Assembly (NCBI GenBank): GCA_032250835.1 | Contig: JAVVEA010000003.1 | Span: forward strand, 153,458-217,457 | Origin: a bacterium | GTDB taxonomy: Bacteria > SAR324 > XYD2-FULL-50-16 | Direction of reading: 5' to 3' | Length of the DNA stretch: 64,000 nt | Shown: positions 20,420 through 36,820 of the stretch, piece by piece | Layout: the number at the start of each line of letters is the position of its first letter | How positions within the stretch are numbered: position 1 is the stretch's first letter | The notes under the pieces: generated by a model | What the model was told of the DNA's origin: nothing | Seen by the model: only the letters and a program-made list of their open reading frames with translations | Databases searched by the model: none | Made by a program: the position numbers and the translations under genes

Positions 20420-20528
20420 AGGGGACTTGTAAGGTCTTGAAGAATTTTGCTATTAAGGAACCTAGTGCACCGGCAGCCATGGCAATACCGTCTCGCGGTC
20501 CGGGGCCTGATCTATTTTTTAAAGAGTT

Positions 20529-21053: not shown

Positions 21054-21191
21054 ACGGGGGATGGATTGCCCCTAACAACTGCCCCTAAGTTAAAGGGGTG
21101 GTGGTCGCGGTAGCCGAGGCGGCCAACAAACTTCCAGGGCCCTCAGATGGTGGGTTTCTGGATATTATTCAATAAAACTGTTAGGCTCTTT

Positions 21192-21217
21192 GTAACTTAT
21201 CCGCTCGTTGGTCCGAA
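21192..21217 (+). promoter_or_regulatory. ECF (SigF/ECF16-type) promoter, left operon
   Basis: GTAACT-N16-CGAA, 88 nt before ATG 21305. Confidence 0.8.
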
Positions 21218-21304
21218 TATAGGCTATTAAGGAAGCACTCCTTTTAGGGAGGGCTTTTTGAGAAGGTACCCTAGAATCGACCAAACCCATTTAGGAATGT
21301 TGCT

Positions 21305-21838
21305 ATGAAGCCAACGCATCGTTTGTTGCTGTTGCCCCTATTTTTTGCTTTTTGCCTGTTCTCCTCCCCCAACCCCACCTTAGCCGAAGGAAACCAACAC
21401 TCCATGGGTAACCCTTGTGCCGCCAAAGGGATGAACCCTTGCGCGATGGGTAATCCCTGCGGCCTTGCGGCAATGAATCCTTGCTCCATGGAGGCCAAAG
21501 GGGCCGCGTTATGGGCCGACAAAAAGCTTTCGGGTGACCAACAGCGGTCCTGTTTGACCTGCCATCAAGGTGGGCAGTTGCTTAACTTGGATAAAGTGGG
21601 GCCCTTCCCTCATTACGTGTCTATGCCCAAGCGGAAGGTCACCTTAGAAGAGATGATCAATTTTTGTATGCAAGGGCCGATGAAGGCCAAGCCTTTCCCC
21701 AAAGGCTCAATGCAATTAAACGCTATGGCCGCATATTATCCCCGGTTGGTTAAAGAATATAAAATGAATTCAGGTCAGCCCAAAAAGGCCAATATGATGG
21801 GTAACCCTTGTGCCATGCACAATCCTTGTGCCCGTTAG
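21305..21838 (+). CDS. Periplasmic monoheme cytochrome c with NPC repeats
   Basis: signal peptide, CLTCH, six NPC motifs at the two termini. Confidence 0.8.
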   Translation: MKPTHRLLLLPLFFAFCLFSSPNPTLAEGNQHSMGNPCAAKGMNPCAMGNPCGLAAMNPCSMEAKGAALWADKKLSGDQQRSCLTCHQGGQLLNLDKVGPFPHYVSMPKRKVTLEEMINFCMQGPMKAKPFPKGSMQLNAMAAYYPRLVKEYKMNSGQPKKANMMGNPCAMHNPCAR

Positions 21839-21944
21839 GCTGGGTGACAAATAGCATCCAGCCGGGAGCCTCTTAAAAACTTAGGTTTGGAGGGCGGGCC
21901 GCAAAAGTCCGCCTTCCAAAAGGATCCACTGCAACCAAGCACCT

Positions 21945-22769
21945 ATGAAACAAGACTGGATCGGGGACTTTGTTGGGGAATTTTTTGGCACCTTGCTGTT
22001 AGTTTTTTTTGGTTGTTCCACCGTAGCCGCTACGGTCCTGTTTGGGGCCCATGTGGGGCTGATGCAGGTGGCCTTGAGTTGGGGGGTGGCTGTAACCTTG
22101 TCGATTTACGCTAGCCGCCATCTGAGTTGCGCCCACCTCAACCCGGCGGTTTCCTTGGCCATGGTTTGTTCAAAACGAATGCGTTGGCGTAAGTTACCGA
22201 CCTATCTCTTGGGGCAATTCCTGGGTGCCTTTGCCGCTGCGGCTCTGGTGTACGCAGTATTCGGGCCGAGCATCACCCAATTTGAATGGGTACGGGGAAT
22301 CGTCCGAGGGAGTGCCGAATCTAAGGAAACGGCCATGATTTTTGGCGAGTTTTTCCCTAATCCAAGCCTACCCGCTTGGGCGGAGGTAACGGTTTGGAAT
22401 GCCTTTTTTTCTGAAGCCATCGGAACCGCCTTTTTGGTTTTAATGGTTTTTTCGCTCACCGAAAAATGTAACGTCGGGCGACCAGATGAGGCGTTGAGCC
22501 CCCTGTTTATTGGGGCCACGGTAACATTGATCATTGCGGTGCTGGCCCCGATCACCCAGGCGGGTTTAAACCCGGCTCGGGACTTAAGTCCTAGGCTCTT
22601 CGCTGCGGTTGCCGGCTGGGGCGAAGCGGCTTTCCCGCAGCCGGCTTGGAGCTTTTTGAGCGTCTATGTGGCGGGGCCGATGCTCGGGGCTCTGGTTGCG
22701 GCGGTGGCCTTTACCCAGCTGATGGAACCTTTAGCTCGTCAGAAAAATGACCGTGAAAGTTGCTGCTAA
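21945..22769 (+). CDS. MIP-family aquaglyceroporin (GlpF-type)
   Basis: HLNPAVS and GLNPARD motifs. Confidence 0.93.
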   Translation: MKQDWIGDFVGEFFGTLLLVFFGCSTVAATVLFGAHVGLMQVALSWGVAVTLSIYASRHLSCAHLNPAVSLAMVCSKRMRWRKLPTYLLGQFLGAFAAAALVYAVFGPSITQFEWVRGIVRGSAESKETAMIFGEFFPNPSLPAWAEVTVWNAFFSEAIGTAFLVLMVFSLTEKCNVGRPDEALSPLFIGATVTLIIAVLAPITQAGLNPARDLSPRLFAAVAGWGEAAFPQPAWSFLSVYVAGPMLGALVAAVAFTQLMEPLARQKNDRESCC

Positions 22770-22824
22770 ATTGAGGTCCATCAACCGGGGGTCTTGGGTT
22801 CGCCAAATTATTGGTAGGGGTAAA

Positions 22825-23991
22825 ATGGTCGCTACCACAACCTTCTTTCTCCTCTTATTGGGCTTTTTGGGGGCTCCGTTAGGAGCCGCTCAAACACCAG
22901 ATTTTCTAAGCCAACATTGGCAGAGGCCCCTAAAGGACATGGGCCCTAAACCCCCAGGCAAGAGCTTTGCGGATATCAGCCTAGAGCCAGAGTCCTGTGG
23001 TCAATGCCACCCCCTTCAGTACGCCGACTGGAGCACTAGCTTGCATGCCTCGGCCCTCGGCCCTGGTGTGCTGGGACAGTTACAGGACTTGCCCCCGGCC
23101 GACCAGGAGAGCCATCAAGCCTGCTTGCGGTGCCATGCCCCCTTGGCCGAACAATCCAAGGGCCTCGTCGTCGAGTTATTGGGTCAGGGGCCAGGGTTGC
23201 ACCGCCACGGGGTGGTTTGTGCCGCTTGCCATGTCCGCAACTGGCAATGGTCGGGGCCACCTAGCCGAAACCCGAGCCCGGCGGTTAGCCCTAGCCCTCA
23301 TCAAGGTTTTGAGCCTAAAGCCGAGTTTTCCGACGCTGCCTTTTGTTCGGCTTGCCACCAATTTGGAGCCGAAGGCTACCAACTGAACGGAAAGCCCTTA
23401 GAAAACACCTATCAAGAATGGAAGGAAAGCCGCTTCGGACAGGCGAACCAACCTTGTCAGTCCTGTCATATGCCGGATCGGCGTCATCTTTTTAAAGGCA
23501 TCCACGATGCCGCCCTGGTTAAAAAGGCGGTGCCGGTGCAGCGGGTTGGTTGGCAGGTACGGGGCCAGAGGGTTTCGGGTGCTTGGGAAATCCATTCGGC
23601 CCAGGTCGGCCATCGGTTCCCCACTTATGTCACGCCCGAGGTGGTGGTGCAGGTGTTTTGGTTGGATGCCCAAGGCAAGGTCTTACCGGTATTGGGGCGC
23701 AAATGGCTGATCGCGCGCGTAGTGGACCTGGAACAGGGCCGGGAGCTATCGGATACCCGGATGTTTCCAGGCGAGAAACGCGTCTATTCCTTTGAAGGCC
23801 CGCAACCCCAAGGGGCGGCGGCCCTACGTTTCGAGGTGCGGGTAGACCCCGATGCCTATTACCGAAGGCTCTACCGACAGTACCTTAAAGGTTCGCCAGA
23901 GTCGCTTGGGCACCGAGCGATCCAGTTGGCCTACGATGCCAGCAAAAAGTCCGCCTACCTACTCTTTGCTGAAACCCTGAGTTTGCCCTAA
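22825..23991 (+). CDS. Periplasmic pentaheme cytochrome c (c554/c552-like)
   Basis: signal peptide; CGQCH, CLRCH, CAACH, CSACH, CQSCH; GHRFPT. Confidence 0.88.
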   Translation: MVATTTFFLLLLGFLGAPLGAAQTPDFLSQHWQRPLKDMGPKPPGKSFADISLEPESCGQCHPLQYADWSTSLHASALGPGVLGQLQDLPPADQESHQACLRCHAPLAEQSKGLVVELLGQGPGLHRHGVVCAACHVRNWQWSGPPSRNPSPAVSPSPHQGFEPKAEFSDAAFCSACHQFGAEGYQLNGKPLENTYQEWKESRFGQANQPCQSCHMPDRRHLFKGIHDAALVKKAVPVQRVGWQVRGQRVSGAWEIHSAQVGHRFPTYVTPEVVVQVFWLDAQGKVLPVLGRKWLIARVVDLEQGRELSDTRMFPGEKRVYSFEGPQPQGAAALRFEVRVDPDAYYRRLYRQYLKGSPESLGHRAIQLAYDASKKSAYLLFAETLSLP

Positions 23992-24044
23992 GCTAATTAC
24001 AAAGTGGTGACCACTTGCATGAAAACCCCAGGCCCAAACCGACA

Positions 24045-24497
24045 ATGCACAAACTGTTTGTAACAATTAGCTGTTTTTTGTGGTTGAGCTCCGTGGCCTG
24101 CGCCGGTGATGGGTTGGTCAAACTCCGCAGTTCCTTTGATGTCAAAACTACCCTGGACCGGTTTGAGAGCCAACTAAGGTCCAAGGGCTTGACCATCTTT
24201 CTGCGGATCAACCACGCGGAGGGTGCCCAAAAGGTTGGAAGCCAGTTGCGAGCAACAGAGGTTCTCCTATTTGGCAACCCCAAGCTGGGAAGCCAGTTGA
24301 TGGCCTGCAATCCTCAGGTCGGGTTGGACCTCCCCCAAAAGGCGCTGGCCTTCGAAGACTCCCAGGGAATCGTTTGGCTAGCCTACAATGCCCCCAGTTA
24401 CCTAACAGAGCAGCATAACTTAACGGGGTGCGAAGCCGCAATCCAAACGCTGGAAAGGGGCCTGTCACAGTTCGCCAGTGCTGCGGCCTCAAAATAA
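24045..24497 (+). CDS. Secreted DUF302-family protein
   Basis: INHAEGA, LLFGNPKLG, GLDLPQKAL. Confidence 0.85.
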   Translation: MHKLFVTISCFLWLSSVACAGDGLVKLRSSFDVKTTLDRFESQLRSKGLTIFLRINHAEGAQKVGSQLRATEVLLFGNPKLGSQLMACNPQVGLDLPQKALAFEDSQGIVWLAYNAPSYLTEQHNLTGCEAAIQTLERGLSQFASAAASK

Positions 24498-24534
24498 TGA
24501 CCAGGCTCTTTCGAGGGCATTTACTTAAACGCGA

Positions 24535-25263
24535 TTGATGGAAACAAGCCGCATCAGCATCGTTATCCCGGTCTACCAAGGGGCTACAGCCCCGCCTCAA
24601 GAACAACGTGAAACATGGTTGCGGCTGTTTCAAGCAGCCCCTAAGTCGATATGCTGGCACTTGGTCGAAAGCTACCGGTCCGGGGAAGGCCTACAAATTA
24701 TCCCTTGGCTCGCGCAGTACCCGCAAGCAAATCTTCGGTTGCATCCGCTGCCCCTAGAGCGCCCTCAACGCGCCGCTGCCTTCAACTTTGGCATCGCTCA
24801 GACGCAAACCAAACTGGTGGCGCTGATCCACCAAGACTGTTTGCCCGACTTAGCGGGGCTCACCATGCTGGCCGAGTCCGAAGAGTGGGCCTGGGGTGGG
24901 TTTAATAAATGTTATGAGCCATCCCATTGGATGTTAAAACTATCCAGCCTTTACCAAAACCAGGTAAGGTTCCCAAGGGGCTTGTTGGTGGGCACCAATG
25001 GGTTTGTGTTCCCCCGTAGTTTTTGGGAGCGCCACCCCTTTAGGGGGGATTTTCTTGAAGACCTAGGTTTTTCGGACCAGATCCAGAAGGAATTGGGGCG
25101 GCCCAAGTCCTTTGGCATACTGCGCGTGTCCTCCACCCGATACCACCGCCGCGGGGTGGCGCGCTGTTTGTTGGAAAACAGTCTGATTTTGTTGGGTTAT
25201 CGGTTGGGGCTAAGCCCCAGATTTTTAAGGCAATTTTATCGACCCATGAAGGAGCCATGTTAG
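24535..25263 (+). CDS. Divergent GT2 glycosyltransferase (TIGR04283 arsenosugar-associated-like)
   Basis: ISIVIPVY, RAAAFNFG, LIHQDC, AWGGF, FLEDL, VSSTRY. Confidence 0.7.
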   Translation: MMETSRISIVIPVYQGATAPPQEQRETWLRLFQAAPKSICWHLVESYRSGEGLQIIPWLAQYPQANLRLHPLPLERPQRAAAFNFGIAQTQTKLVALIHQDCLPDLAGLTMLAESEEWAWGGFNKCYEPSHWMLKLSSLYQNQVRFPRGLLVGTNGFVFPRSFWERHPFRGDFLEDLGFSDQIQKELGRPKSFGILRVSSTRYHRRGVARCLLENSLILLGYRLGLSPRFLRQFYRPMKEPC

Positions 25264-26411
25264 CGGCCCTTTCGGCGAGCCTTGCCCTGGTCCCCTGGTG
25301 GATGGCCCCACTGCCCTTTCCAGCCCAATTGGCGCTGGCTTGGTTGGGCTATTGGGGGTTACACCGCTTTGGCCACCCCGCGAGGTTTTGGCTGTGGTGG
25401 GTTTTGGGCTTCGCTACTTTGGGCTTTAGGTGGGCTCAGCCCGCCATCCAGGCAGACGACTACTTGCGGTATCTCTTTGACGGGCAACTGGTCCTGCAAG
25501 GGGTCAACCCCTATGGTTTGGTGCCCCAGGACCTTCCGTTATACCAGACCTTTTGGACTCCCAAGGGGAACATCCCGACCATCTATCCCCCCTTGGCCGA
25601 AGGGATTTTTACGGTAGCTGCTTGGATTGCCTTAGGGTTGCCGGGGCTTCGGCTTTTGTCGGCGTTGGCATTGATGTTTCTGATGCCCTTGGCCTTTTGG
25701 GCATGGCCCAAGGCAAAGGCGCAAAGGTTTTTGCTGCTGGTCCTCTATTGTCCGTTAGTCCAACAAGAGCTCTTCCACTCGGCCCATGTGGATGTATGGT
25801 TGTTGCCGCTTCTGTTCGGGTGGTATCTTTTGGCCAAAGGTAAGCGGAGCGTTGCTGCGGGCGGGGTGTTAGGGTTGGCGGTGCTGTTGAAGTTAAGTCC
25901 CCTGGTCCTGTTTCCCCTATGGGCGGTAGGGATTTCGCTCCGGCAAAGGTGGTGGGCGGCGCTGGGTCTCTGCGGGGTGTTGGCTCTCGGTTTTGGGCTC
26001 TTTTACCCTCAGCAACCCTTTAGCGCCCTAGCCCTGTTTTATCAGTCCATCGAGGGGTATAGCCCCTTTTACCGGTTGCTCCGGTGGGGCTTAGACCGCG
26101 AGACGGCCCGCTTGGCCTTAGCTTCGCTGGGAACCGCCGGGTATCTGATTTGGCTGGCCCGCAACCCCCAGCTAGATCATTTGTTCTGGGTCTTCGCCGG
26201 GCTGTTTCTGTTTACGCCGACCGGATTCCCCTGGTATCTCGCCCCCTTATTGTTGGTACCCAAGGTAGGCTGGCCCAGCTGGTGGGTACTTTTCTGCGCT
26301 CTGGCTCATTTACAATATTATCTCCTTTGGCCCTATGGCTGGGCCCTAGAATTGGGTCTTTTAGCCTTTGGCTGGTTCCAAACCCTTTACCCCCAACGGA
26401 GTTCTGCATGA
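25257..26411 (+). CDS. Polytopic membrane GT-C/GT87-like glycosyltransferase
   Basis: DDYLRYLFDG, GVNPY, TIYPPLA, SAHVD, FPWY; many TM segments. Confidence 0.75.
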   Translation: MLAALSASLALVPWWMAPLPFPAQLALAWLGYWGLHRFGHPARFWLWWVLGFATLGFRWAQPAIQADDYLRYLFDGQLVLQGVNPYGLVPQDLPLYQTFWTPKGNIPTIYPPLAEGIFTVAAWIALGLPGLRLLSALALMFLMPLAFWAWPKAKAQRFLLLVLYCPLVQQELFHSAHVDVWLLPLLFGWYLLAKGKRSVAAGGVLGLAVLLKLSPLVLFPLWAVGISLRQRWWAALGLCGVLALGFGLFYPQQPFSALALFYQSIEGYSPFYRLLRWGLDRETARLALASLGTAGYLIWLARNPQLDHLFWVFAGLFLFTPTGFPWYLAPLLLVPKVGWPSWWVLFCALAHLQYYLLWPYGWALELGLLAFGWFQTLYPQRSSA

Positions 26412-26578
26412 TGCCTCTTACCTTGATTTCAACCGCCTTTGCCAAGTCTCCTTTGGGGAGTGCCAAAGCCTTCCATGACTACCAATCGGGCGGCAACGCC
26501 TTGCTCGAATTTGGGGCTACCCTGGCGATTGGGGTGGCTCTGGTATTGGTCTATTATTGGTTTCGGCGCAAAAAGTAG
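26408..26578 (+). CDS. Small 56-aa membrane protein
   Basis: ATGA overlap with upstream stop; C-terminal TM plus RRKK. Confidence 0.55.
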   Translation: MMPLTLISTAFAKSPLGSAKAFHDYQSGGNALLEFGATLAIGVALVLVYYWFRRKK

Positions 26579-26581
26579 GGG

Positions 26582-27430
26582 CTAGACTCCAGGCTTCTTG
26601 GTCCGCTTCTTGATCAAGGCGAGATAGAGGCCACCGAGTATCAACGCACTGCTAAGCCACAACCTCAGGCTTAAGGTCTCTTGTAAAAAGAGGAAGCCAC
26701 CTATGAGGGCGATCAAGGGGACCGTCAATTGCAGAACCGATGCGGTCCATAGCGAAAGGCGCTGCAACGCAAAATACCAAAGCAGGTACCCTAGGCCTGA
26801 GGTGACCGCGCCCGAGACCGCCGCTAGAGATTTCCCGTAGAGGCTGCTGGTACCGCTGCCTTGGCTTAACCACAGCAAAAGCAGCGCCAACGGCACAATA
26901 GCTAAAAAATTCCTAGCCGTGGCCCCGGCGGGGTCCGATTTTCCGCGACCCCAAACCGAGTAAAGCCCCCAAGCCAACCCGGCCAGGGCCATGTTGATCG
27001 AAGCCAGCCAGGGGGGAGCCTCCAGCCCCGGCGATAAAAGATAGACCAAGCCTGCCCAGGAGAGCCCAAAACCGAACCATTCGCCGGGGCCTAGGCGCTG
27101 CCCTAGGATCAGCGCGGCTCCAATCATGGTGGATTGAACCGAAGCGAACAGAACCAAGGCACCCACCCCCGCAGGCAAGCGCACATAAGCCAGCGAGAAG
27201 AAGGTGGCGTACAAAAATAGGGCGAGCGGCTCGCGCCAGCGATTGAGGCCCGAGGATTGGGCTTTGCCCCGAGCGGCCCAAGCCCAAGGGAATAAGACCA
27301 CGGCCCCAGCCAACAGGCGGATCGCGGTAAACTCTAATGGGTTAATCTCTGGGCCCCTGAGCGCGAGACGAGCCAGTATGGAGTTGGCGGCAAAGGCCCA
27401 AAGGCTCAAGACCGCCAAAATGGGGGTCAT
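26582..27430 (-). CDS. DMT/EamA-family transporter
   Basis: AFAANSILARLAL, AVTSGLGYLLW; ATG 27430 immediately after arsM stop. Confidence 0.88.
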   Translation of the reverse strand: MTPILAVLSLWAFAANSILARLALRGPEINPLEFTAIRLLAGAVVLFPWAWAARGKAQSSGLNRWREPLALFLYATFFSLAYVRLPAGVGALVLFASVQSTMIGAALILGQRLGPGEWFGFGLSWAGLVYLLSPGLEAPPWLASINMALAGLAWGLYSVWGRGKSDPAGATARNFLAIVPLALLLLWLSQGSGTSSLYGKSLAAVSGAVTSGLGYLLWYFALQRLSLWTASVLQLTVPLIALIGGFLFLQETLSLRLWLSSALILGGLYLALIKKRTKKPGV

Positions 27431-27431
27431 C

Positions 27432-28505
27432 TTAGCAACCGCAATTGCTGGTTGGGCCTTCAGAACTGGAGGTTTGCGCAAAGGGAAAGTGCCCACCACA
27501 GCCAGGGAATACCCCGTGGTGGTGGTTGAAATCGCCGAAAAAGTCAAAGTATGGGGCAAACCGGGTTTCTTTAAGCATCCGGTAGCTATTCCCGCAAACC
27601 AATTCGATCTTGTCTTTGGCAAAGGCATGGCCTTGATCTAGCCAGAAAACTTGGGGCATCTCTTCCACCCCGCCCCGGTAGCGTACCGCTTGGCCATAGT
27701 CCTCGCAGCCCGGTTCTAAGCCTGCTAGTTTGATCAGTCGGCAGGTTACCGAGTAAAACTGAATGCCTTCTAAGGCTTTTTGGACCGATTCATTCTCGAT
27801 GGTGATCCGGTTAAAATCCACCCACCGGGGGTCGGCAAAGCCCGCCGCCTTAACGTCGCGCAAGAAGTCGTTCCAATAAAGCGCCCCGGACAAACATTCT
27901 CCGTAAAGCACTGGGTCATTTTTGAGGTCCAAGGGCACCCGTTTGTCGGTATATACGTCCGAAAAATAAAGCTCCCCTCCAGGTTTCAACAACCGATATG
28001 CTTCCTTAAACACCGCCAATTTGTCGTCCACCAGATTGATCACGCAATTAGAAATGATCAAATCTTGATGGTCCGCTTGGAGATTTAAGGCCGATATATT
28101 TTGGATGTCCCCTTCAAGGAACTGGACATTACTCTTTGGGTAGCCAAATTTTTCTTGGTGGAAGCCCATATGCTTGCGGGCGACGTCCAATTGTTCTGGG
28201 GTCATATCCACTCCGGTCACTTGGCCCTTTTCGCCCACCAAACGGCTTAAAATATAGGCATCGCGGCCCGAGCCCGAACCTAGGTCGATTACCTTCAAGC
28301 CCTCCAGCAAGCTGGGGATGGTGAGGCCGCAGCCAAAAAAACGCTCCACCACCTCAGGGTGGATTTCAGACAAAATCGCTTTGATCTTGGGCGGGTAGCT
28401 ACTCACGCTACAACAGGCATTGGTTAAGAGGTCATCGGTCTTTTGCAGGGTCTGCCCATAATATTCCTGGACCGCTTGTTTGTGGTCTTGCTCGACAAAA
28501 TTCAT
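27432..28505 (-). CDS. arsM: Arsenite S-adenosylmethionine methyltransferase
   Basis: NACC, FFGCG, DLGSGSGRD, ISNCVINL, YGECLSGAL (conserved ArsM cysteines); RBS AGGAG. Confidence 0.9.
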   Translation of the reverse strand: MNFVEQDHKQAVQEYYGQTLQKTDDLLTNACCSVSSYPPKIKAILSEIHPEVVERFFGCGLTIPSLLEGLKVIDLGSGSGRDAYILSRLVGEKGQVTGVDMTPEQLDVARKHMGFHQEKFGYPKSNVQFLEGDIQNISALNLQADHQDLIISNCVINLVDDKLAVFKEAYRLLKPGGELYFSDVYTDKRVPLDLKNDPVLYGECLSGALYWNDFLRDVKAAGFADPRWVDFNRITIENESVQKALEGIQFYSVTCRLIKLAGLEPGCEDYGQAVRYRGGVEEMPQVFWLDQGHAFAKDKIELVCGNSYRMLKETRFAPYFDFFGDFNHHHGVFPGCGGHFPFAQTSSSEGPTSNCGC

Positions 28506-28526
28506 GTTCTGCTCCTTAGGGGGTCA

Positions 28527-30221: not shown

Positions 30222-30242
30222 GGATTGATTTGGGTTTGGGTC

Positions 30243-31334
30243 TTATCGAGCCGGTTTGCGGGTGAAGCTGAGTGCCTCTTTGGGGCAAATATCAATGCAG
30301 CCGCCGCAGCCGATGCACAGGGTTTGTTGCAATCCAAAGCTCCCCAAAGTGGCTTGTTTGTCTTGATGTGCAAAGGAGGCTACGTCGATGCCCATAGGGC
30401 AAGCTTGAGAGCAAAGGTTGAGGCCTGTGCATTGGGCATTAGCCTGGACCTGAAATTTCGAGCCAACGTAGCGCCCGAAAAACTCCATCCCCTTGGCCAA
30501 AGGGCACCCGAACCGGCACCAGACCCTGGTCCCCAAGAAGGGATAGGCCCCAACGCCCACCAGTGCCCCGAAAATAAAGTCCACGGCAATATCTTGGTAT
30601 AGCTTTCCTGCCAGCAGCCAGCTATCTGCGGTGAATAACTTTAAGAAGTCAAAGAATAACAAGAAACCATAGGCCAAGCCCAAGCATAACAAGAGGGTTT
30701 GCAGGTGCTCTAGCTTTTTGGCCTGGGTGCCGCTCGGCGTTTGGAATTTAACCCATTGTTTGCCCCAGGCAGTGATTCCAATGGTTTCGGCTAGGTTACC
30801 ACAGGAACAAAACCAAGAGCAATAACGCTTCCCAAAAAACCAGACCGATAGGGGCACTAATCCAAATACATAAAACATTCCGCCCCAGGAGGTGAAGGCT
30901 TTAGATACATACACATAGGCCACCAGGTTGGTCGGGGTGACGGGGTCATACCCAAGGTTTTGGCCGCTTGATAACGGCACTAGTACAAAGGGGATCAAAT
31001 AGAAAAAAACGAGTTGTGACCAGAAGATGCTAGAAAACTTGGCTTTTTGATATTTCGATAACGTTGTTTTGCTCCCGCGCCGGTAGGGCGAGCGCCCCAG
31101 GAGGACAACTTTTGCCGCAATCCAACAAACCAAGACGGTGTAGACTGAGGCATACCAAAAGGCCGGGTGTTTATCGAAGAGGTAAAAGCTCCGTACGTCA
31201 TCTGCCCAGCCCCAAGCCACAAACCACTCGTGGCATTTGTAGATAGCGTAACCCACCAACACCAAAGGGGGGTAATAGATCAAAAAGGCCTTTTCAGCGA
31301 TGGAACGCTGCAACTTGCCCTTAGCATAACTCAT
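30243..31334 (-). CDS. Membrane 4Fe-4S binding protein (NapH/MauN-like)
   Basis: multiple TMs, YCSWFCSCG, WCRFGCP, CIGCGGCIDICP. Confidence 0.82.
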   Translation of the reverse strand: MSYAKGKLQRSIAEKAFLIYYPPLVLVGYAIYKCHEWFVAWGWADDVRSFYLFDKHPAFWYASVYTVLVCWIAAKVVLLGRSPYRRGSKTTLSKYQKAKFSSIFWSQLVFFYLIPFVLVPLSSGQNLGYDPVTPTNLVAYVYVSKAFTSWGGMFYVFGLVPLSVWFFGKRYCSWFCSCGNLAETIGITAWGKQWVKFQTPSGTQAKKLEHLQTLLLCLGLAYGFLLFFDFLKLFTADSWLLAGKLYQDIAVDFIFGALVGVGAYPFLGTRVWCRFGCPLAKGMEFFGRYVGSKFQVQANAQCTGLNLCSQACPMGIDVASFAHQDKQATLGSFGLQQTLCIGCGGCIDICPKEALSFTRKPAR

Positions 31335-31389
31335 GGCTGCTCTCTTTAGGTAAAAAGTTGGCCAACGGGCGTAACCGTTGGCTGTTTGG

Positions 31390-32160
31390 TTAGGGCTTTT
31401 GGTTTAACGACCAGTCATAGTCAAAATAATGGATATCTACCGCACCGGAGATTAGGTGTTTGCGTTCCGCATCGTTATGTCCCAACGAATCGGCCACATA
31501 GGCCGCTACCGAACCAGCGGACTGCTCAAAATCTTGGGCAAACCAGTCGAATATCTTAGACAGGTATAAGCGGTCTTGAAGGGGGTCGTACCGATTGCGG
31601 CTAACATCTCCTAGGAACTTGCGTTTTGCCGCCTCTAGTTGCTGCTCCAAGTGGGTTGCTTGGTAGGGCTCCTTGGATAGAGCGGGGCAACCCACCGAAG
31701 CGCAGACAATGGCAAAATGGATGCGTGGTTCTGAGTATCGGGCGCGAAGCCACTGGTGTTCGATCGCACCTAAGGTTTTAATTTCTCCTAACAAAAGGAA
31801 CCGCTCTTGCTCCCAAGGGCTGGAAAACCATCCGCCCAGGTCGCGGATGGACGCAACCTCGGGATAATCCGAAAGGATCAGTTGCAACGTATAAGCGTTG
31901 TAGGCATTGATCAAAAAGGCTAGTTGCTGGGGCCGGGACCATTGCTTAAATTCGTTGGCTGGTACTTGTTCCAGTTGACTTAGGTATTCCTCTAACGGCC
32001 CTGAATGGTCTTGGAGCCAACCATAATCTACTTGGGTAGACGCACCGGCGGGGACTACTGCCGTTTCCAACAGCCGCGCCAAGGCCCGGTGTTGGTGGTC
32101 AAAGGCGTATAAACTAGGGGTAGTAAGCATAAAGAGACAGAGTATCAGCCAAGGTCTCAA
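31390..32160 (-). CDS. Secreted DUF547 protein
   Basis: LAFLINAYNA, PRIHFAIVCASVGCP, LSKIFDWF, YDWSLN; TTG start overlapping arsS stop, RBS AGGAG. Confidence 0.88.
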   Translation of the reverse strand: MRPWLILCLFMLTTPSLYAFDHQHRALARLLETAVVPAGASTQVDYGWLQDHSGPLEEYLSQLEQVPANEFKQWSRPQQLAFLINAYNAYTLQLILSDYPEVASIRDLGGWFSSPWEQERFLLLGEIKTLGAIEHQWLRARYSEPRIHFAIVCASVGCPALSKEPYQATHLEQQLEAAKRKFLGDVSRNRYDPLQDRLYLSKIFDWFAQDFEQSAGSVAAYVADSLGHNDAERKHLISGAVDIHYFDYDWSLNQKP

Positions 32161-33137
32161 TGGGTCTCCTGCTGCTCTAACGCACCGTTGCACGAGCTAC
32201 CCGCCCCAGCGGTGCAGCCGAAACAATGTTCCCCAACGGCAATCTTTTGGTTGGCGAAATCCAAATGGGACCGTTCGAAAATGTCCGCTTTAAAGGGACC
32301 AAACCCTAGGGCTTGATTGAAGTCACAATCAAAGAGCTTCCCCTGGTAGTCCACCGAAACCAAGTTACGGCACATCACCCTTTGGGCGGCCTGTTCGTTG
32401 AAATTCGCCTGAAGTAATTGCTGGTAGGCTTCCCATTGCCCTGATCGCTTGAGTTCCCCCGCAAATCGGCGGATAGGCATGTTGGCGATGCTGTAAAGCT
32501 GGTTGAATTCAATTCCATAGTCCTCTCGCAACCGCGACCGATAGGTGGCTTCCAAAGCCCGCTGGTCACCGGGCAGGAAGGCCCCGTTTGGGTTGTATAC
32601 CAAGTCTAGACCCAGGGGCCCTTGGCCGTAACCCACCTGATTCAGCCGTTGTAACCCTTGGATACTCCGACTAAAAACCCCATCCCCCCTTTGCTGGTCC
32701 ACGTTCGCCCCGCTATAACAGGGCAAGGAGGCAATGATTTGAACTCGATTTGAAGCCAACCACTCTGCGGTGTCCTCTTGGCCGGGCTCAAACAACACCG
32801 TAAGGTTGCAACGGTTGGTAACCTGAACCTCTAGTTGGGTTAAAGCCTGAACAAAGCAGCGGAACTGGGGGTTTAGCTCGGGAGCACCGCCGGTCAGGTC
32901 AACCTGAGTGATGCTCGGCGTGGCTTCAACCAACTCAAGTACCCGTTGCATGGGGATCCAGTCCATCAATTCGCGGCGGGTGGGTCCGGCGGCTTGGTGG
33001 CAATGGTGGCAGGCTTGATTGCAAAGACTGCCGAGATTGACTTGCAGGATTTGGGTCGTACCACGTCGACAGTCGAGGGATGCCGAGGCGAGGCGTTGGT
33101 GGAAGGAAGGGGACTGAAATTGGGTGGATTGGTTCAT
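32157..33137 (-). CDS. arsS: Arsenosugar biosynthesis radical SAM protein
   Basis: LQVNLGSLCNQACHHCH, DLTGGAPELNP, QRGDGVF, DCDFNQ, HCFGCTAGAGSSC. Confidence 0.88.
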   Translation of the reverse strand: MNQSTQFQSPSFHQRLASASLDCRRGTTQILQVNLGSLCNQACHHCHQAAGPTRRELMDWIPMQRVLELVEATPSITQVDLTGGAPELNPQFRCFVQALTQLEVQVTNRCNLTVLFEPGQEDTAEWLASNRVQIIASLPCYSGANVDQQRGDGVFSRSIQGLQRLNQVGYGQGPLGLDLVYNPNGAFLPGDQRALEATYRSRLREDYGIEFNQLYSIANMPIRRFAGELKRSGQWEAYQQLLQANFNEQAAQRVMCRNLVSVDYQGKLFDCDFNQALGFGPFKADIFERSHLDFANQKIAVGEHCFGCTAGAGSSCNGALEQQETH

Positions 33138-33181
33138 TGGAGGCTCATGAAGCTCGTTAAAAAGCGGCTGTATGAAACCAA

Positions 33182-33207
33182 TTCGCCCCAACCACTCAAA
33201 AAGTTAC
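33182..33207 (-). promoter_or_regulatory. ECF (SigF/ECF16-type) promoter, arsS operon
   Basis: minus strand GTAACT-N16-CGAA, ~45 nt before arsS ATG. Confidence 0.8.
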
Positions 33208-33218
33208 AAAAAATAGTC

Positions 33219-33857
33219 TCACCATTTTAAGATTTTAGGCCCCAGGAAAAACCCCCCTAAAGTGAACATTATGGTGGGGATCAGGTGCCATGCGGTTTGG
33301 TGGTATAGGTTGTCGTTAGACTCTAACAGCATCAGGGCAAAGTTACCCATCGAAGTGGCAAAAAGGACCGATAAAGCCCCCGACCAATGAGGTAACACCG
33401 GGGCCAAACGCTTCACTTGAAAGAGCATGTAGGCCCCCGGTAGCACCAAAAAGAGCATGAAGCTTTGGATGCAAAAGCGGTCCATCGGTTGCGGATAGAT
33501 CTGTTCTGGGTAGTGGAGCAGCGTATGGGCCAACTGGAATAATAAGCTGCTTACCCAGATCGTTAGGGGTAGGAAGCCGAGGGACGGTAGCCATCTTGGC
33601 AGGTCCATCCTGGGGATCGCCAAATAACAAGCGAGCGCGGCGCTGACCAACGCCGAACCGCCCAACAGGGCCAAGTGGGTGATGAAAAGTGGTTCCAGTG
33701 CTTGATCCGCCAAATCACTGCGCAAACCATAGTACCAACTAACCGCCAAAAAGAAGAACAAGCTGGCCCCTACGCCCATTAGTGAGGCCATCCAAGGCGA
33801 CCTCACCGCTTGGCAATCCTGGCGGCTTAGGCTGTCGATCAATTGTTGGTTATTCAT
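33219..33857 (-). CDS. nrsF: NrsF/DUF1109-family membrane anti-sigma factor
   Basis: overlaps ECF sigma stop; LIDSLS N-terminus, GLRSDL, ~6 TMs, WH motif. Confidence 0.75.
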   Translation of the reverse strand: MNNQQLIDSLSRQDCQAVRSPWMASLMGVGASLFFFLAVSWYYGLRSDLADQALEPLFITHLALLGGSALVSAALACYLAIPRMDLPRWLPSLGFLPLTIWVSSLLFQLAHTLLHYPEQIYPQPMDRFCIQSFMLFLVLPGAYMLFQVKRLAPVLPHWSGALSVLFATSMGNFALMLLESNDNLYHQTAWHLIPTIMFTLGGFFLGPKILKW

Positions 33858-34404
33858 CCGCAGGGCTGAGTTGCTCGGTGATTTTTTTCAGACATCGGTG
33901 CAGGGCTACCTTCACGGCGGATTCGCTCATGCCCATCTTTTGGGACGTCTCCCGGATAGAGTAGCCTTCAATTTTGCACAACTGAACCAGTTGGCGTTGC
34001 TGGCTGGGGAGTTTTTCCAGAATATCGGACAGTTGTTCGCGCTGCAACTGGTAAAAGGTTACATCCTGCGTCTCTTTTTCGAGGGTGAGGTGGTCTAAAA
34101 AGGTCTTTTCCAGCTCCAACCGGCGGTAGGCTCCACGGAAGTGGTCTTTCAAACGATAGTTGGCGATAGCAAACATCCAGGGCTTAAAGGGGCGGTTTGC
34201 TTGGTAGGTATGGCGGGCTTTATGGATGGAAATCAGGCATTCTTGGATCAGGTCGTTTAAACCTTCGGAATCACTGACCTTACTCCGCATCAATGCATGG
34301 AGTAACCGCTCGCACTGCCGCAAGACTTCGGCGTAAGCCAATTCGTCTCCGGCCTGCGCTTGCGCCATGAGGGTTTCCAGGGGGATCGTGGGTGTTGGGC
34401 TCAT
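33850..34404 (-). CDS. ECF sigma factor (SigF/ECF16-like)
   Basis: DLIQECLISIHKARHTY...PFKPWMFAIA, SESAVKVALHR. Confidence 0.9.
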   Translation of the reverse strand: MSPTPTIPLETLMAQAQAGDELAYAEVLRQCERLLHALMRSKVSDSEGLNDLIQECLISIHKARHTYQANRPFKPWMFAIANYRLKDHFRGAYRRLELEKTFLDHLTLEKETQDVTFYQLQREQLSDILEKLPSQQRQLVQLCKIEGYSIRETSQKMGMSESAVKVALHRCLKKITEQLSPADE

Positions 34405-34645
34405 CGTCGACCACCTTCAAGGTCCAATCGTCAGTTCATCCAAAGCCCTCCTCAACCTGGTGGCTTTTTGGTGTATAAGCTTTAGTCGCGAAAGGTTGCC
34501 TTCAAGACGAGCGGTTTGCACCCTGGGCGTCATCGGGGCCAGCAGGCTAGTCCGTTCTCTTGGGGGCGGAGGCCTACTTTTACGCGTTGAGCACCCAATC
34601 AAGTTGGATTTGCCTACCAACCGGGGGGAAAAAGAAGGCTTGGTT

Positions 34646-34671
34646 GTAACCTTTCGCGTTGAGCAACCGAA
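34646..34671 (+). promoter_or_regulatory. ECF (SigF/ECF16-type) promoter facing tetR-peroxiredoxin genes
   Basis: GTAACC-N16-CGAA. Confidence 0.65.
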
Positions 34672-34743
34672 CAACTGGGGCAAGAGTTTCCAAAAGGAGC
34701 GCCCAAGACTAATCCCAGTCTCTGCTGCTAGTTTTATTCCTCG

Positions 34744-34772
34744 TTGACTTTATAGACGACTGGTCGTATTGT
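34744..34772 (+). promoter_or_regulatory. Sigma70 promoter overlapped by TetR operator 1
   Basis: TTGACT-N17-TATTGT; operator TAGACGACTGGTCGTA 34753-34768. Confidence 0.7.
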
Positions 34773-34800
34773 CAAACTATAACTGATAAGAGAGGGGTAG

Positions 34801-35394
34801 ATGAAACGCAGCATCAAACGTGAAGAAACCGAAGGCCGCCTGCTTGAGGTGGGCTTGTCTTTGTTTATCCAGCAGGGGTATCACGGTACGGGTCTTAAAG
34901 AAGTGGTGGATCAGGCCCAGATGCCCAAAGGCTCTTTTTACGCTTATTTTGACAGCAAAGAAGCCTTTGGTGGGTCGGTGGTAAACCACTTCGCCCAACA
35001 GGGGCTGGCCCGACTGGCGGTTTCCTTGGAGCAAGCTCCAGATCCGCTTTTGGGCCTGAGGGCTTTTTTTCAGGCCAACCGGGATAAGATGGAGTCCAGG
35101 GGATTTGCTGGGGGGTGTCTTTTGGGGAATTTTTCTAACGAGTTGGGCGCGCAGGCCCATGAGATCACACCGCATTTATTGCAAGGCTTGGGTAATTTAT
35201 CCTTGCACTTTGCGGAGGCTTTGGAAAAGGCCCAAGAGCTGGGGCTGGTCCGGCAAGATTTGGACGCATCCACGCTGGGCGACCTATTGCTCAACGGATG
35301 GGAAGGGGCGCTGATGAGGGCTAAAACCCAAGTTTCCCCTGAACCGCTGGATCAATTTTTGACCAGCTTTTTTGACCACCTCCTAAAACCGTAA
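34801..35394 (+). CDS. TetR-family repressor (NemR-like)
   Basis: GYHGTGLKEVV...KGSFYAYFDSKE HTH; GCLLGN. Confidence 0.9.
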   Translation: MKRSIKREETEGRLLEVGLSLFIQQGYHGTGLKEVVDQAQMPKGSFYAYFDSKEAFGGSVVNHFAQQGLARLAVSLEQAPDPLLGLRAFFQANRDKMESRGFAGGCLLGNFSNELGAQAHEITPHLLQGLGNLSLHFAEALEKAQELGLVRQDLDASTLGDLLLNGWEGALMRAKTQVSPEPLDQFLTSFFDHLLKP

Positions 35395-35426
35395 CGGGCG
35401 GTTCCTGCATGGTTGCGGGGTGGTTT

Positions 35427-35455
35427 TTGTAAATAGACGACCGGTCATATATAAA
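35427..35455 (+). promoter_or_regulatory. Sigma70 promoter overlapped by TetR operator 2
   Basis: TTGTAA-N17-TATAAA; operator TAGACGACCGGTCATA 35434-35449. Confidence 0.7.
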
Positions 35456-35464
35456 GGAGATCCC

Positions 35465-36121
35465 TTGAACCAGATGTTTGCTTTAAAAAACTCACTAAAG
35501 GCTTTAGAAGACCAATTCAATGAAAAGATGCCCGCTGAAACGAGGCAGCTGCTAGAGCAAAAGCGGCGAGAGTTGGCTGCTTTGGAGATAGAAAAGGCGG
35601 TGCCCGCGTTGGGTGAATTGGCCCCTGATTTTACGCTCAAGAACTTTGACGGGCAGAAGGTCCAGCTTTCTGATTGGTTGGAGAAAGGTCCGGTCGTACT
35701 GAGTTTCTACCGGGGGGCTTGGTGTCCCTACTGTAACCTTGAGATCAAGGCCTTAGGCGATTCTCTTGAAGCCTTTCAGGCCGCAGGGGCCAGCCTTCTG
35801 GTGGTCTCGCCTCAGCGAGCGGAGTTTTCTTCTCGCCAAGTGGAACAGGGGCAGTTGAAATTTCCGGTCTTAGAAGACCCAGGGAATCAACTAGCCGCTA
35901 GGTATGGCTTGGTCTTCACCTTAGACCCCAGCTTGCGGCCCTTGTACGAGCAACTGGGCATCGACATCCCGGCCTACAACGGGGACACAAGCTTTCAACT
36001 GCCCTTCCCTGCTACCTTCGTGGTCGACCGACCGGGAAAAGTCAGGTTTCGATTCGTCGATTCGGACTACCGCAAACGCGCGGAGCCCCAAGAAATTTTA
36101 GATGTGCTCAACTACCTATAA
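35465..36121 (+). CDS. Peroxiredoxin-like AhpC/TSA protein
   Basis: FYRGAWCPYCNLE; RBS AAGGAGA before TTG 35465. Confidence 0.88.
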   Translation: MNQMFALKNSLKALEDQFNEKMPAETRQLLEQKRRELAALEIEKAVPALGELAPDFTLKNFDGQKVQLSDWLEKGPVVLSFYRGAWCPYCNLEIKALGDSLEAFQAAGASLLVVSPQRAEFSSRQVEQGQLKFPVLEDPGNQLAARYGLVFTLDPSLRPLYEQLGIDIPAYNGDTSFQLPFPATFVVDRPGKVRFRFVDSDYRKRAEPQEILDVLNYL

Positions 36122-36130
36122 GAGGAATTC

Positions 36131-36670
36131 ATGCGGCTACAACCTGGTGACTATGCTCCCCCAATCGACCTTCCCAGTTTTGAAGGAACTCCCTTCAACC
36201 TACAGGCCAACCGGGGACGTTGGCTCTTATTATCCTTTTATCGTTACGCTTCCTGCCCTTTTTGTAACCTGCGCATCCATAACTTAAGCAAGGAAAGCGC
36301 AAGGCTGAAGGGATTGGGTTTAGATCTCGTCGCTGTGTTCCAGTCTCCTGAAGCCAAGGTCCGCGAACATGCGGGTGGCCGCAACCTAACCTATCCCATA
36401 TTATGTGATCCAACCGAGGATTTGTACCGGCAATATGGCGTAGAGACGTCCTGGGCTGGGTTTTTCGGCGGTATGATGCTCAAGATGCCCAAGATGTTTA
36501 ATGCATTCTTTAAGGGCTATCTGCCAGGGAGTATGGAGGGGCATATCAACCGAATGCCCGCTGACTTTTTGATTGCGCCCGATGGAACCATCAGACTTGC
36601 CTACTATGGCTCCGACCTCGCGGACCATCTGTCCCTAAATGAGGTCATCCAAGTCCTTCCGCAAGGGTGA
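36131..36670 (+). CDS. Redoxin/AhpC-TSA family protein
   Basis: FYRYASCPFCNL, MPADFLI. Confidence 0.85.
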   Translation: MRLQPGDYAPPIDLPSFEGTPFNLQANRGRWLLLSFYRYASCPFCNLRIHNLSKESARLKGLGLDLVAVFQSPEAKVREHAGGRNLTYPILCDPTEDLYRQYGVETSWAGFFGGMMLKMPKMFNAFFKGYLPGSMEGHINRMPADFLIAPDGTIRLAYYGSDLADHLSLNEVIQVLPQG

Positions 36671-36820
36671 TCCAACGCCTCTAGGAGGACCGCCTAGGCA
36701 AGGCTTATCAACCATCCCGCCAAGCAACCTGCTGGTGTCCCACTGGTCTAAGAGTCAACTTTAGGGGAAGGGTAAGCCGGGAGGGGCTCGGCTTATCCTC
36801 TTTAAAGGGGCTTTGGGGGG

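Follow-up and report, generated by a model that had tools for sequence, protein, structure and literature searches.

A Candidate Sigma-F/NrsF-Controlled Organoarsenical Locus with c-Type Cytochromes in a SAR324 Bacterium

Gene Content of the Locus

The gene content and conservation of an arsenic-related locus were examined at positions 21192-36670 of a 64,000-nucleotide stretch (G000:C33:153458-217457, hereafter the window) of a SAR324 genome of 3.66 Mb in 43 contigs. The locus combines genes for an arsenite methyltransferase (ArsM) and an enzyme of the radical S-adenosylmethionine (SAM) type (ArsS) with an extracytoplasmic function (ECF) sigma factor, its NrsF-type anti-sigma, two c-type cytochromes and a pair of glycosyltransferase (GT)-like proteins. 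The grouping exceeds chance, because promoter motifs are in excess in the window and the synteny recurs in relatives in rearranged form. The locus is probably a sigma-F/NrsF regulon that makes organoarsenicals of the ArsM/ArsS type and handles arsenic species at the envelope. We further infer an arsenosugar product and a role of the cytochromes in this process.

Genes were called by listing open reading frames (ORFs), by Pfam and NCBIfam scans and by direct reading of the translations. All the genes named at this interval in a preliminary description of the window were recovered by these means, and its start, 21192, is the first G of a sigma-F -35 element. Scores are given below in bits against the cut-off of the respective model. 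The features of the locus were as follows (aa, amino acids; GT2, GT-A, GT-C and GT87, glycosyltransferase families and folds; MIP, major intrinsic protein; DMT, drug/metabolite transporter; NPC, a repeated Asn-Pro-Cys motif).

21191-21218, plus strand: sigma-F-type promoter motif TGTAACT-N16-CGAAT, 86 nt ahead of the cytochrome c start codon
21305-21838, plus strand: exported monohaem SoxA/TsdA-type cytochrome c (cytNPC), 177 aa, PF21342
21945-22769, plus strand: MIP channel of the GlpF clade, TIGR00861
22747-23991, plus strand: pentahaem c-type cytochrome, 414 aa, five CxxCH motifs, N-terminal hydrophobic anchor or signal
24015-24497, plus strand: exported DUF302 protein, PF03625
24535-25263, plus strand: GT2-like transferase of GT-A fold, 242 aa, a divergent relative of TIGR04283
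25257-26411, plus strand: polytopic membrane protein of GT-C fold, 384 aa, MptA_B/GT87-like
26408-26578, plus strand: small membrane protein, 56 aa, its start overlapping the GT-C stop
26582-27430, minus strand: EamA/DMT transporter, PF00892
27432-28505, minus strand: ArsM, similar to PDB entries 5evj and 4fr0
28527-30221, minus strand: HD-GYP-type protein, HD_5
30243-31334, minus strand: NapH-like membrane protein, 363 aa, bearing a 2x[4Fe-4S] ferredoxin domain at its C-terminus
31361-31382: strong GC-rich hairpin in the gap between the DUF547 and Fe-S genes, terminator-like on both strands
31390-32193, minus strand: exported DUF547 protein, PF04784
32157-33137, minus strand: radical SAM enzyme ArsS, TIGR04167, with a C-terminal DUF3641 domain
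33181-33208, minus strand: sigma-F-type promoter motif TGTAACT-N16-CGAAT, between nrsF and arsS
33219-33857, minus strand: membrane anti-sigma NrsF (DUF1109), PF06532
33850-34404, minus strand: ECF sigma factor, Sigma70_r2 and r4_2
34036-34063, minus strand: sigma-F-like motif with a 17-nt spacer within the sigma gene, which would read into nrsF
34645-34671, plus strand: sigma-F-like motif GTAACC-N16-CGAA, 129 nt ahead of tetR, a weaker candidate
34744-34775: divergent sigma-70-like promoters over an operator-like palindrome, in the gap between the sigma gene and tetR
34801-35394, plus strand: TetR-family regulator, TetR_N and TetR_C_13
35420-36121, plus strand: AhpC/TSA-fold protein (prx) with a WCPYC motif
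36131-36670, plus strand: AhpC/TSA-fold protein (prx) with an SCPFC motif, matching a SelL-related redox protein below the cut-off

An Rfam search of positions 20000-37500 at E<=0.1 gave no match. No sequencing runs were listed for window positions 24000-33999, and none of RNA.

Conservation and Rearrangement of the Core Genes

Ten genes were taken as the core, namely those for the ECF sigma factor, NrsF, ArsS, the DUF547 protein, the NapH-like Fe-S protein, ArsM, the GT2-like transferase, the GT-C protein, the NPC cytochrome and the pentahaem cytochrome. This core recurred in three different gene orders: in the window, in the genome G010 (same family, other genus) and in the metagenome locus L026. 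In G010, a single strand carried sigma, nrsF, arsS, DUF547, FeS, HD-GYP, arsM, DMT, a histidine kinase gene, GT2, GT-C, the small protein gene, cytNPC and the pentahaem gene, and tetR with one prx was divergent from this run. L026 was arranged in three units, with the pentahaem gene and cytNPC on one strand and GT2-GT-C on the other, converging on arsM-FeS-DUF547-arsS-nrsF-sigma. In G006, cytNPC-pentahaem converged on MIP-arsM-DMT, and arsS-DUF547-FeS lay on another contig. The cytochrome pair stayed with arsM through four different gene orders.

The link drawn in the preliminary description between the plus-strand (left) operon and arsS/arsM was borne out by this co-occurrence in G010 and L026, and the refuting outcome named there, a left operon found nowhere else with these genes, was not observed. 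Its gene set held as a unit for the ten-gene core and did not hold for the MIP, DUF302, HD-GYP and DMT genes, which are, judged from the sequence comparisons, accessory and not core.

ArsM matches at E<=1e-30 were found in 17 of 88 genomes of the phylum, nine of them full-length at E<=1e-117. The neighbourhoods of these nine arsM genes were as follows.

Pentahaem(-like) gene within 5 kb of arsM: 5 of 9 (G000, G010, G006, G007, G003)
MIP gene adjoining arsM or elsewhere in its locus: 4 of 9 (G000, G006, G007, G003)
tetR-prx near arsM: 4 of 9 (G000, G010, G007, G003)
DUF547 gene near arsM: 3 of 9
arsS near arsM: 2 of 9
None of these features near arsM: G036 (18 kb examined)

The nine genomes are kin, so these counts are not independent, and the gene orders differ among them; in G005 and G020, arsM lay on contigs of at most 6 kb. 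In G013, a pentahaem(-like) gene was present on the arsM contig at a distance of 14.6 kb. The inclusion of tetR-prx-prx in the locus, as previously claimed, agrees with the third row. In L026, the interval directly upstream of the sigma gene (15135-19401) contained genes for an EgtD-like histidine methyltransferase and for a molybdopterin oxidoreductase/class-V aminotransferase fusion of 1090 aa.

The Sigma-F/NrsF Pair and Its Promoter Motifs

The ECF sigma factor (TIGR02937, 83.9 against 42.9) is encoded by a gene whose stop overlaps the nrsF start (33850-33857). NrsF matched PF06532 (87.4 against 26.8), and its cysteines C77 and C129 were invariant in three orthologues. When upstream regions were compared, TGTAAC[CT]-N16-CGAAT preceded the cytochrome gene of each of the three loci, and in the window a copy was also present in the nrsF-arsS gap; the arsS-side motif has counterparts in G010 (L013 10692-10719) and L026 (13889-13916). 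The motif matches the sigma-F site GTAACC-N16-CGAA, which was experimentally derived in Caulobacter (PMC3511200).

The exact form TGTAACY-N16-CGAAT occurred twice in the 3.66-Mb genome, once before arsS and once before the cytochrome gene. Among 104 loci, it was found only at the two homologous positions of G010 and L026 and in a locus that duplicates the window. With at most one mismatch, the window held three matches against 0.32 expected. When the spacer was allowed to vary over 15-18 nt, five matches were present in the window, where 0.17 were expected, and four of the five fall in the locus. The looser form GTAACY-N16-CGAA was present 16 times in the genome against about 14 by chance (our own arithmetic), with three of the 16 in the locus. 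Moreover, the motif within the sigma gene was kept in G010 (L013 11554-11580) and L026 (14740-14766) with differing spacer sequences. No counterpart of the motif before tetR was seen in the intergenic region of G010, and no such motif was found at the corresponding loci of G006, which lack the sigma pair. A sigma-F-like motif at 51711-51738, antisense within a 1446-aa ORF, was set aside as a probable chance match. The joint control by the ECF/NrsF pair that had been proposed for both operons is in keeping with the sigma-F motifs preceding both in three loci. The two operons belong together, since the core recurs in three orders and the motifs stand at the same two positions.

The palindrome region at 34744-34775 has a nearly identical 32-nt stretch in G010 (L013 about 12090-12130), so that it is shared by two genera. 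Because the divergent sigma-70-like promoters overlie this conserved palindrome, a putative TetR operator, TetR may gate the sigma operon. In addition, tetR adjoins the arsM loci of G010, G007 and G003.

ArsS and ArsM

The arsS product exceeded the TIGR04167 equivalog cut-off (410 against 300; 410.2 in the genome search). Its radical SAM motif CX3CX2C reads CNQACHHC in the translation, and its C-terminal domain matched DUF3641 (PF12345, 169.7 against 24.9). The listed start codon, TTG at 33191, falls inside the promoter motif, and the true start is therefore most likely the ATG at 33137. A PDB sequence search with ArsS gave no match. A tree was built from 14 ArsS sequences, and those whose genes are linked to DUF547 and Fe-S genes, the ArsS of the locus among them, formed one clade (support 99/98). 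The TIGR04167 cut-off was exceeded by 13 genomes, G000 among them, out of the 41 in the relatives set. Thirteen loci around ArsS matches, including the second copy of the genome itself, were searched with 18 locus proteins: nine had ArsS alone, one had ArsS-DUF547, two had ArsS-DUF547-FeS (G006 and G013, one genus) and one was near-complete (G010).

The second ArsS-family gene of the genome (C33:84382-85272; L007 9974-10933; 385.6 bits) has SurA-like, prephenate dehydratase and lgt genes as neighbours, and arsM is absent from its surroundings. In the tree, it grouped with the G003 copy as a separate deep clade on a long branch. In three genomes of another family (L016, L018 and L019, from G033, G036 and G039), arsS is divergent from an ornithine carbamoyltransferase-like gene, which is followed by a 502-aa CDP-alcohol phosphatidyltransferase-like gene and then ruvB.

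ArsM is single-copy in the genome and matched solved arsenite methyltransferases over its full length (5evj, E 1.1e-100, residues 9-356; 4fr0 (CmArsM), 2e-85). It carries the cysteines of the NACC, FGCG, SNCV and GEC motifs. Those in FGCG, SNCVINL and GECL align with cysteines of 5evj, and the first aligns with that of its SAC; these four we take to be the catalytic cysteines. ArsM enzymes work by a disulfide mechanism. The ArsM and ArsS assignments of the preliminary description were well founded on the 5evj and TIGR04167 matches. The co-transcription of arsM and arsS and the chemistry of ArsS are already known (bioRxiv 10.1101/2022.09.23.509062; bioRxiv 10.1101/2024.02.01.577332; PMC12159101): arsS has been described as co-transcribed with arsM and as encoding the first committed step to arsenosugars (bioRxiv 10.1101/2022.09.23.509062), and the arsenic adenosylation is performed by a radical SAM enzyme (PMC12159101).

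The GT2/GT-C Pair and Its Predicted Small Partner

Membership of the GT2-like protein in TIGR04283 was rejected, its score being far too low (53.6 against 182). It matched Pfam GT2 at E 0.029. The closest structural neighbours of its Atlas model had template-modelling (TM) scores by query of 0.80-0.82, with clusters named TIGR04283 in four of eight rows. The protein is 24% identical to the true TIGR04283 member of the genome, with the H-x-D and GD-x-L-x-D columns in common.

No Pfam family was found for the GT-C protein at E<=5; a precomputed PF26314 tag is listed for it. It has three close homologues among 5.8 billion proteins, and its distant homologues carry PF09594 (GT87/DUF2029) and PF26314. 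The Atlas model gave TM scores of 0.83-0.88 to MptA_B/GT87 clusters, and GT2-MptA_B fusion proteins exist. The loop ADDYLRYLFDG, with its acidic ADDY motif, was invariant in all four GT-C sequences. The close homologues in G010 and L026 lie in the cluster, and in L025, a 1.9-kb contig, a GT2 gene stands beside the GT-C gene. A metagenome scan with the GT-C alignment returned 80 loci, of which 74 matched the GT-C query only and four had single weak matches to generic families; the others were L025 and L026. The closest GT-C relatives are confined to this cluster.

The small protein has a single membrane helix, at its C-terminus, and carries the conserved motif LG[ST]A[KR]A[FY]; its gene directly follows the GT-C gene in all three other loci that hold GT-C (G010, L025 and L026). 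A complex model of the two proteins scored 0.72, whereas the best of three controls scored 0.00. Of 157 solved complexes in a benchmark, 116 came up to this mark, as did two of 215 mismatched pairs. The runs agreed in at least 78% of contacts, the predicted local distance difference test value of the partner was at least 65, and custom alignments of four rows were used. In the model, the conserved motif of the small protein lies against GT-C residues 65-68, in the ADDY loop. This model supports a predicted binding of the small protein to the GT-C protein.

The Cytochromes, the Channel and the DUF302 Protein

The NPC cytochrome matched PF21342 (41.6 against 27) and failed the SoxA equivalog (35.5 against 110). 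It has one CxxCH, six NPC motifs and Cys-rich repeats at both ends. The NPC motifs were kept in three orthologues, and the number of C-terminal repeats varied greatly. Cys121 (MINFC) was invariant in the three orthologues and aligned with a cysteine of SoxA 1h31 (overall E 0.01), which is presumably the distal haem ligand there. The protein thus shares its domain and this cysteine with the SoxA/TsdA thiosulfate-oxidising cytochromes; it differs from them in being a single domain of about 90 residues flanked by NPC repeats, with no SoxX and no second haem. A homologue search gave 68 proteins, all with one CxxCH and with 3 to 24 NPC motifs; candidates were picked by common five-residue words, so that the repeat itself biases this set. 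The source names of the homologues include SAR324, Mariprofundales/Mariprofundaceae, Gallionella, Thermodesulfobacteriota and Amphritea, among which are iron-oxidising lineages. No description of an NPC-repeat haem protein family was found in the literature searched. Within the 86 nt that separate the promoter motif of the cytochrome gene from its start codon, a small terminator-like hairpin is present at 21238-21251.

The pentahaem cytochrome gave weak matches to Cytochrome_C554 and MtrC domains, and its true start is possibly Met27 (22825). Orthologues were present in G010, L026 and G006, and matches at E<=1e-10 were found in 20 of the 88 phylum genomes. A cytochrome-plus-DUF547 cluster without arsM or arsS was observed in G026 (L126 4774-13329). 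It comprises a different ECF sigma gene with an 83-aa ORF, then a cytNPC homologue, DUF4268, DsrE-like and aldehyde dehydrogenase genes, followed by a pentahaem homologue, VTT/DedA, pyridine nucleotide-disulfide oxidoreductase and DUF547 genes.

The MIP channel (TIGR00861, 180.8 against 171) has two NPA motifs, NPAV and NPAR, in its translation. Its best solved relative was GlpF (1fx8, E 5.7e-43), against 1.5e-15 for AqpZ. The GlpF selectivity filter is presumably formed by W48, G191, F200 and R206. According to a hand count on the 1fx8 alignment, W and R are kept in the locus protein, G191 is replaced by Ile and F200 by Ala. MIP orthologues of 66-71% identity adjoin arsM in G006, G007 and G003, three further genera. 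The DUF302 protein (PF03625, 68 against 23) was present in this locus only, its query giving no match in G010, L026 or G006.

Other Genes of the Locus

The Fe-S membrane protein is the best-conserved gene product of the locus, with 70-75% identity in G010, L026, G006 and G013 and 3412 homologues at E<=1e-10. Like NapH/MauN, it has a membrane domain with a CX3CP-type motif (CRFGCP) and a two-cluster C-terminal ferredoxin domain. It is NapH-like and not a member (TIGR02163, 54.4 against 213; NF007013, 43.7 against 234); there are no nap genes, and its gene follows arsS-DUF547 in all five loci that have it. A contig profile search with this protein gave two loci, both known already, and a PDB sequence search matched the ferredoxin domain and nothing else.

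The DUF547 protein (PF04784, 88.5 against 27) is encoded after arsS in G010, L026, G006, G013 and G002, and a PDB sequence search with it gave nothing useful. The hairpin between its gene and the Fe-S gene (31361-31382) has 10 bp, is GC-rich and has T-runs on both strands; the long minus-strand operon could be divided or attenuated at this point. The HD-GYP protein matched HD_5 (60.3 against 27.2), and the GYP-type motif HHHQSFDGGGYP was read in its translation, so that by domain and motif it qualifies as a predicted HD-GYP-type protein; no domain was assigned to its N-terminal approximately 345 aa. Its gene is present in G010 and absent from L026.

The DMT transporter (PF00892, 93.9 against 28.2) follows arsM in G010, G006 and G013. 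Its ORF is open up to 27628, and the gene probably starts at the candidate ATG at 27430, one base past the arsM stop. The frame stays open for about 66 further codons upstream of this likely start, and this part overlaps the arsM end (27430-27628; L013 4765-4943). The open stretch was aligned by tblastn between the window and G010, and its conservation is probably a by-product of that of arsM. Orthologues of the WCPYC protein were found in G007 and G003 and those of the SCPFC protein in G010, G007 and G003.

Arsenic Genes Elsewhere in the Genome

A classical ars operon lies on the same contig at C33:104471-108891 (L132), about 45 kb before the window. It contains arsR, a SaoE/SO_0444-like (ArsP-like) permease gene, a gene for an ArsE-like thioredoxin-fold protein, arsC of the low-molecular-weight protein tyrosine phosphatase type (126.5 against 174.3) and acr3 (453 against 283). 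A glutaredoxin-type arsC is present on C7, and no ArsB was found in the genome. On C11, a true pair of TIGR04282 and TIGR04283 genes is present (209.5 and 221.8 bits), and a DUF547 paralogue on this contig follows a gene for a 741-aa protein with a disulfide-oxidoreductase half. Within the window, no match to acr3, arsB or arsC was found, arsR not having been searched separately there. The earlier statement that arsC, arsB and acr3 are missing from the window stands to this extent. As an argument against detoxification, it was rejected, because the arsR-arsC-acr3 operon is on the same contig.

Comparison with Known Systems

A close precedent is the arsM-arsS pair of Synechocystis sp. PCC 6803 (Xue et al., 2019; Cheng et al., 2021). 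As there, the locus has an As(III) SAM methyltransferase and a TIGR04167 enzyme with the same direction of transcription, and its ArsS is expected to use the ArsM product. Unlike in Synechocystis, arsM and arsS are separated by four genes and lie under predicted sigma-F/NrsF control, and the locus adds the NapH-like Fe-S protein, DUF547, GT2/GT-C, two c-type cytochromes, MIP and HD-GYP. With respect to the NCBIfam arsenosugar set (TIGR04167, TIGR04282, TIGR04283 and NF038099), ArsS is a member and the GT2-like protein has the TIGR04283 fold and TIGR04283 clusters as its nearest structural neighbours; however, a TIGR04282 gene is lacking from the locus, and the GT2-like protein stays far under the TIGR04283 cut-off.

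The sigma-F/NrsF systems of Caulobacter crescentus (PMC3511200) and Azospira suillum (PMC4436054) resemble the locus in the overlapping gene pair, the NrsF Pfam match, two conserved cysteines, the GTAACC-N16-CGAA promoter and a very small adjacent regulon. C77 and C129 are candidate counterparts of the periplasmic cysteines C131 and C181 of Caulobacter NrsF. The locus differs in its regulon, which consists of arsenic enzymes, glycosyltransferases and cytochromes instead of YedYZ/MrpX-type genes, and in its main promoter, which stands after nrsF and not before sigF.

For the GT2/GT-C pair, an analogy is offered by the methylthioxylose pathway of mycobacteria, which originates from methylthioadenosine and has a GT-C partner. 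In that pathway, Rv0539/mtxS makes a lipid-linked methylthioxylose donor (PMC12088412). By analogy, a GT2-type enzyme could convert a 5'-substituted 5'-deoxyadenosine, arising as a product or by-product of SAM chemistry, into a pentose on a lipid carrier, and a GT-C protein could transfer this pentose outside the membrane. In the locus, arsenic would replace sulfur, and the likeness is one of analogy and not of sequence comparison with MtxS/MtxT.

Proposed Mechanism

In the proposed regulon, NrsF, a multi-pass protein with two conserved cysteines, would hold the sigma factor until a thiol-reactive signal arrives, as extrapolated from Caulobacter. The signal would probably be As(III) or methyl-As(III). 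The freed sigma factor would then act at three promoters, namely the canonical ones of arsS and of the cytochrome gene and one that lies within the sigma gene. As(OH)3 would cross the GlpF-type channel in one or the other direction. ArsM would form dimethyl-As(III), to which ArsS would add the 5'-deoxyadenosyl group, as in the chemistry of the Synechocystis work, and the NapH-like Fe-S membrane protein may feed electrons to these reactions. The GT2-like and GT-C proteins, with the small partner, would then move the arsenic-bearing pentose to an acceptor on the membrane's outer face, probably via a lipid-linked intermediate as with mycobacterial MtxS. In the periplasm, the exported DUF547 protein and the NPC and pentahaem cytochromes may bind and oxidise or reduce trivalent arsenic-thiol species. 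A soluble product may leave through the DMT transporter, and the TetR-controlled pair of CxxC proteins may keep the ArsM cysteines reduced.

A more specific version of this scheme was considered unlikely to hold in full. It supposes that a lipid-linked dimethylarsinoyl-pentose is formed from the ArsS product, much as methylthioxylose is formed in mycobacteria, that the GT-C protein transfers it on the outer face, possibly onto the conserved Ser/Thr of the 56-aa partner, and that the NPC cytochrome, as a member of a new family, and the pentahaem cytochrome carry out the redox handling of arsenic-thiol adducts. If true, this would be a route of arsenic redox chemistry without molybdenum enzymes or ArsC-type reductases.

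Evidence against the Proposed Function and Alternative Explanations

Several observations weigh against the organoarsenical function proposed here from gene content. ArsM was below all NCBIfam cut-offs (NF008823, 179.3 against 263; NF040538, 169.4 against 500), including that of the arsenosugar ArsM model NF038099 (86.9 against 400), another difference from Synechocystis. The GT2-like protein, having failed TIGR04283, ranked only sixth for that model in its own genome, where the true member scored 221.8; since the true TIGR04282/TIGR04283 pair sits on C11, the usual partners of ArsS are outside the locus. None of the other 17 locus proteins was found nearby at nine of the 13 ArsS loci, and the eight of these nine that were annotated had housekeeping neighbours. 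Because most ArsS loci are of this kind, the ArsS family may have a function beyond arsenosugar chemistry. In L026, arsS has an in-frame TAG (13669-13671, about codon 86), either a sequencing error or the mark of a broken gene, and the other sequences have no Cys there; in the 540 nt upstream of the GT2/GT-C unit of L026, no sigma-F motif was present. Neither MIP nor DUF302 gave a query match in G010 or L026, and the same held for HD-GYP and DMT in L026. The NPC-cytochrome family may be of general purpose, since it occurs in Mariprofundales/Mariprofundaceae, Gallionella, Thermodesulfobacteriota and Amphritea records. Twelve of the 14 loci around pentahaem homologues (31-40% identity) had no other locus genes, and a DsbA-like gene stood beside a more distant homologue in three of five annotated loci. 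Finally, the same genome holds the classical ars operon, and biosynthesis and detoxification are therefore indistinguishable from gene content.

The last two points also serve the main rival, a protective regulon against periplasmic thiol or metalloid stress, which was thought distinctly less probable than the organoarsenical regulon. In this explanation, sigma-F/NrsF would sense thiol-reactive stress, the Cys/Met/His-rich tails of the cytochrome would be a sacrificial or buffering sink recycled by the haems and the pentahaem protein, the DUF547 and CxxC proteins would repair thiols, GT2/GT-C would alter the envelope, and ArsM/ArsS would make less reactive products that leave via MIP and DMT. 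The copy number of the NPC tail varies between orthologues, as expected of a sink. Caulobacter sigma-F answers to chromate and cadmium via the NrsF cysteines (PMC3511200), and the SigF-NrsF-MrpX-YedY system of Azospira, which such a regulon would resemble, has a methionine-rich scavenger peptide of the periplasm and the corresponding reductase under SigF/NrsF control (PMC4436054). Moreover, Synechocystis arsM mutants are slightly arsenite-sensitive, whereas arsS mutants are not (bioRxiv 10.1101/2022.09.23.509062). However, a dedicated ArsS, a GT2/GT-C pair with a small partner and a highly conserved Fe-S protein exceed the needs of scavenging, and the closest GT-C family members occur only in this cluster.

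It was held improbable that the chemistry is not that of arsenic, with the ArsS/ArsM-type enzymes acting on Sb, Se, Te or a thiol and the SoxA/TsdA-type cytochrome on sulfur compounds. The failure of ArsM at the NCBIfam cut-offs, the absence of a nearby arsM at most ArsS-family genes of relatives, the thiosulfate enzymes of the cytochrome domain family and the related G026 cluster, with a DsrE-like gene and no arsM, would fit such chemistry. Nevertheless, ArsM matches solved arsenite methyltransferases over its full length (E 1e-100) with the arsenic-binding Cys motifs kept, ArsS passes its equivalog model, and a GlpF-type channel adjoins arsM in three further genera. The least credible explanation was a chance proximity of two unrelated halves, in which the cytochromes, MIP and DUF302 would serve a respiratory or transport function of their own. 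The wide occurrence of pentahaem homologues in the phylum without arsenic genes (the 12 loci above) and the lack of MIP and DUF302 in the other two complete loci are consistent with it. Against it stand the only two exact sigma-F motifs of the genome, which precede arsS and the cytochrome gene at positions kept in two other loci, and the persistence of the cytochrome pair with arsM through four gene orders.

Significance

In the literature searched (open papers), no description was found of arsS/arsM combined with cytochromes and sigma-F control, and papers mentioning DUF547 with arsenic were incidental. The new elements are a predicted NrsF-type switch over a regulon of two promoters, the pair of cytochromes with the NPC-repeat family and the small GT-C partner; modules that relatives keep apart are consolidated here in one locus. 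In the formation of arsenosugars and arsenolipids, characterisation has reached only the first two enzymes, ArsM and ArsS. For the later steps, in which the arsenic-bearing sugar is freed and transferred, a short and conserved set of candidates, namely the GT2-like protein, the GT-C protein with its small partner, the DUF547 protein and the NapH-like Fe-S protein, is provided here in one predicted regulon with two clean promoters. The locus further connects arsenic genes with c-type cytochromes and with an NPC-repeat haem family that had not been described before. This prediction is testable by a few constructs and arsenic speciation, and it would bear on arsenic transformation by an abundant uncultivated marine lineage.

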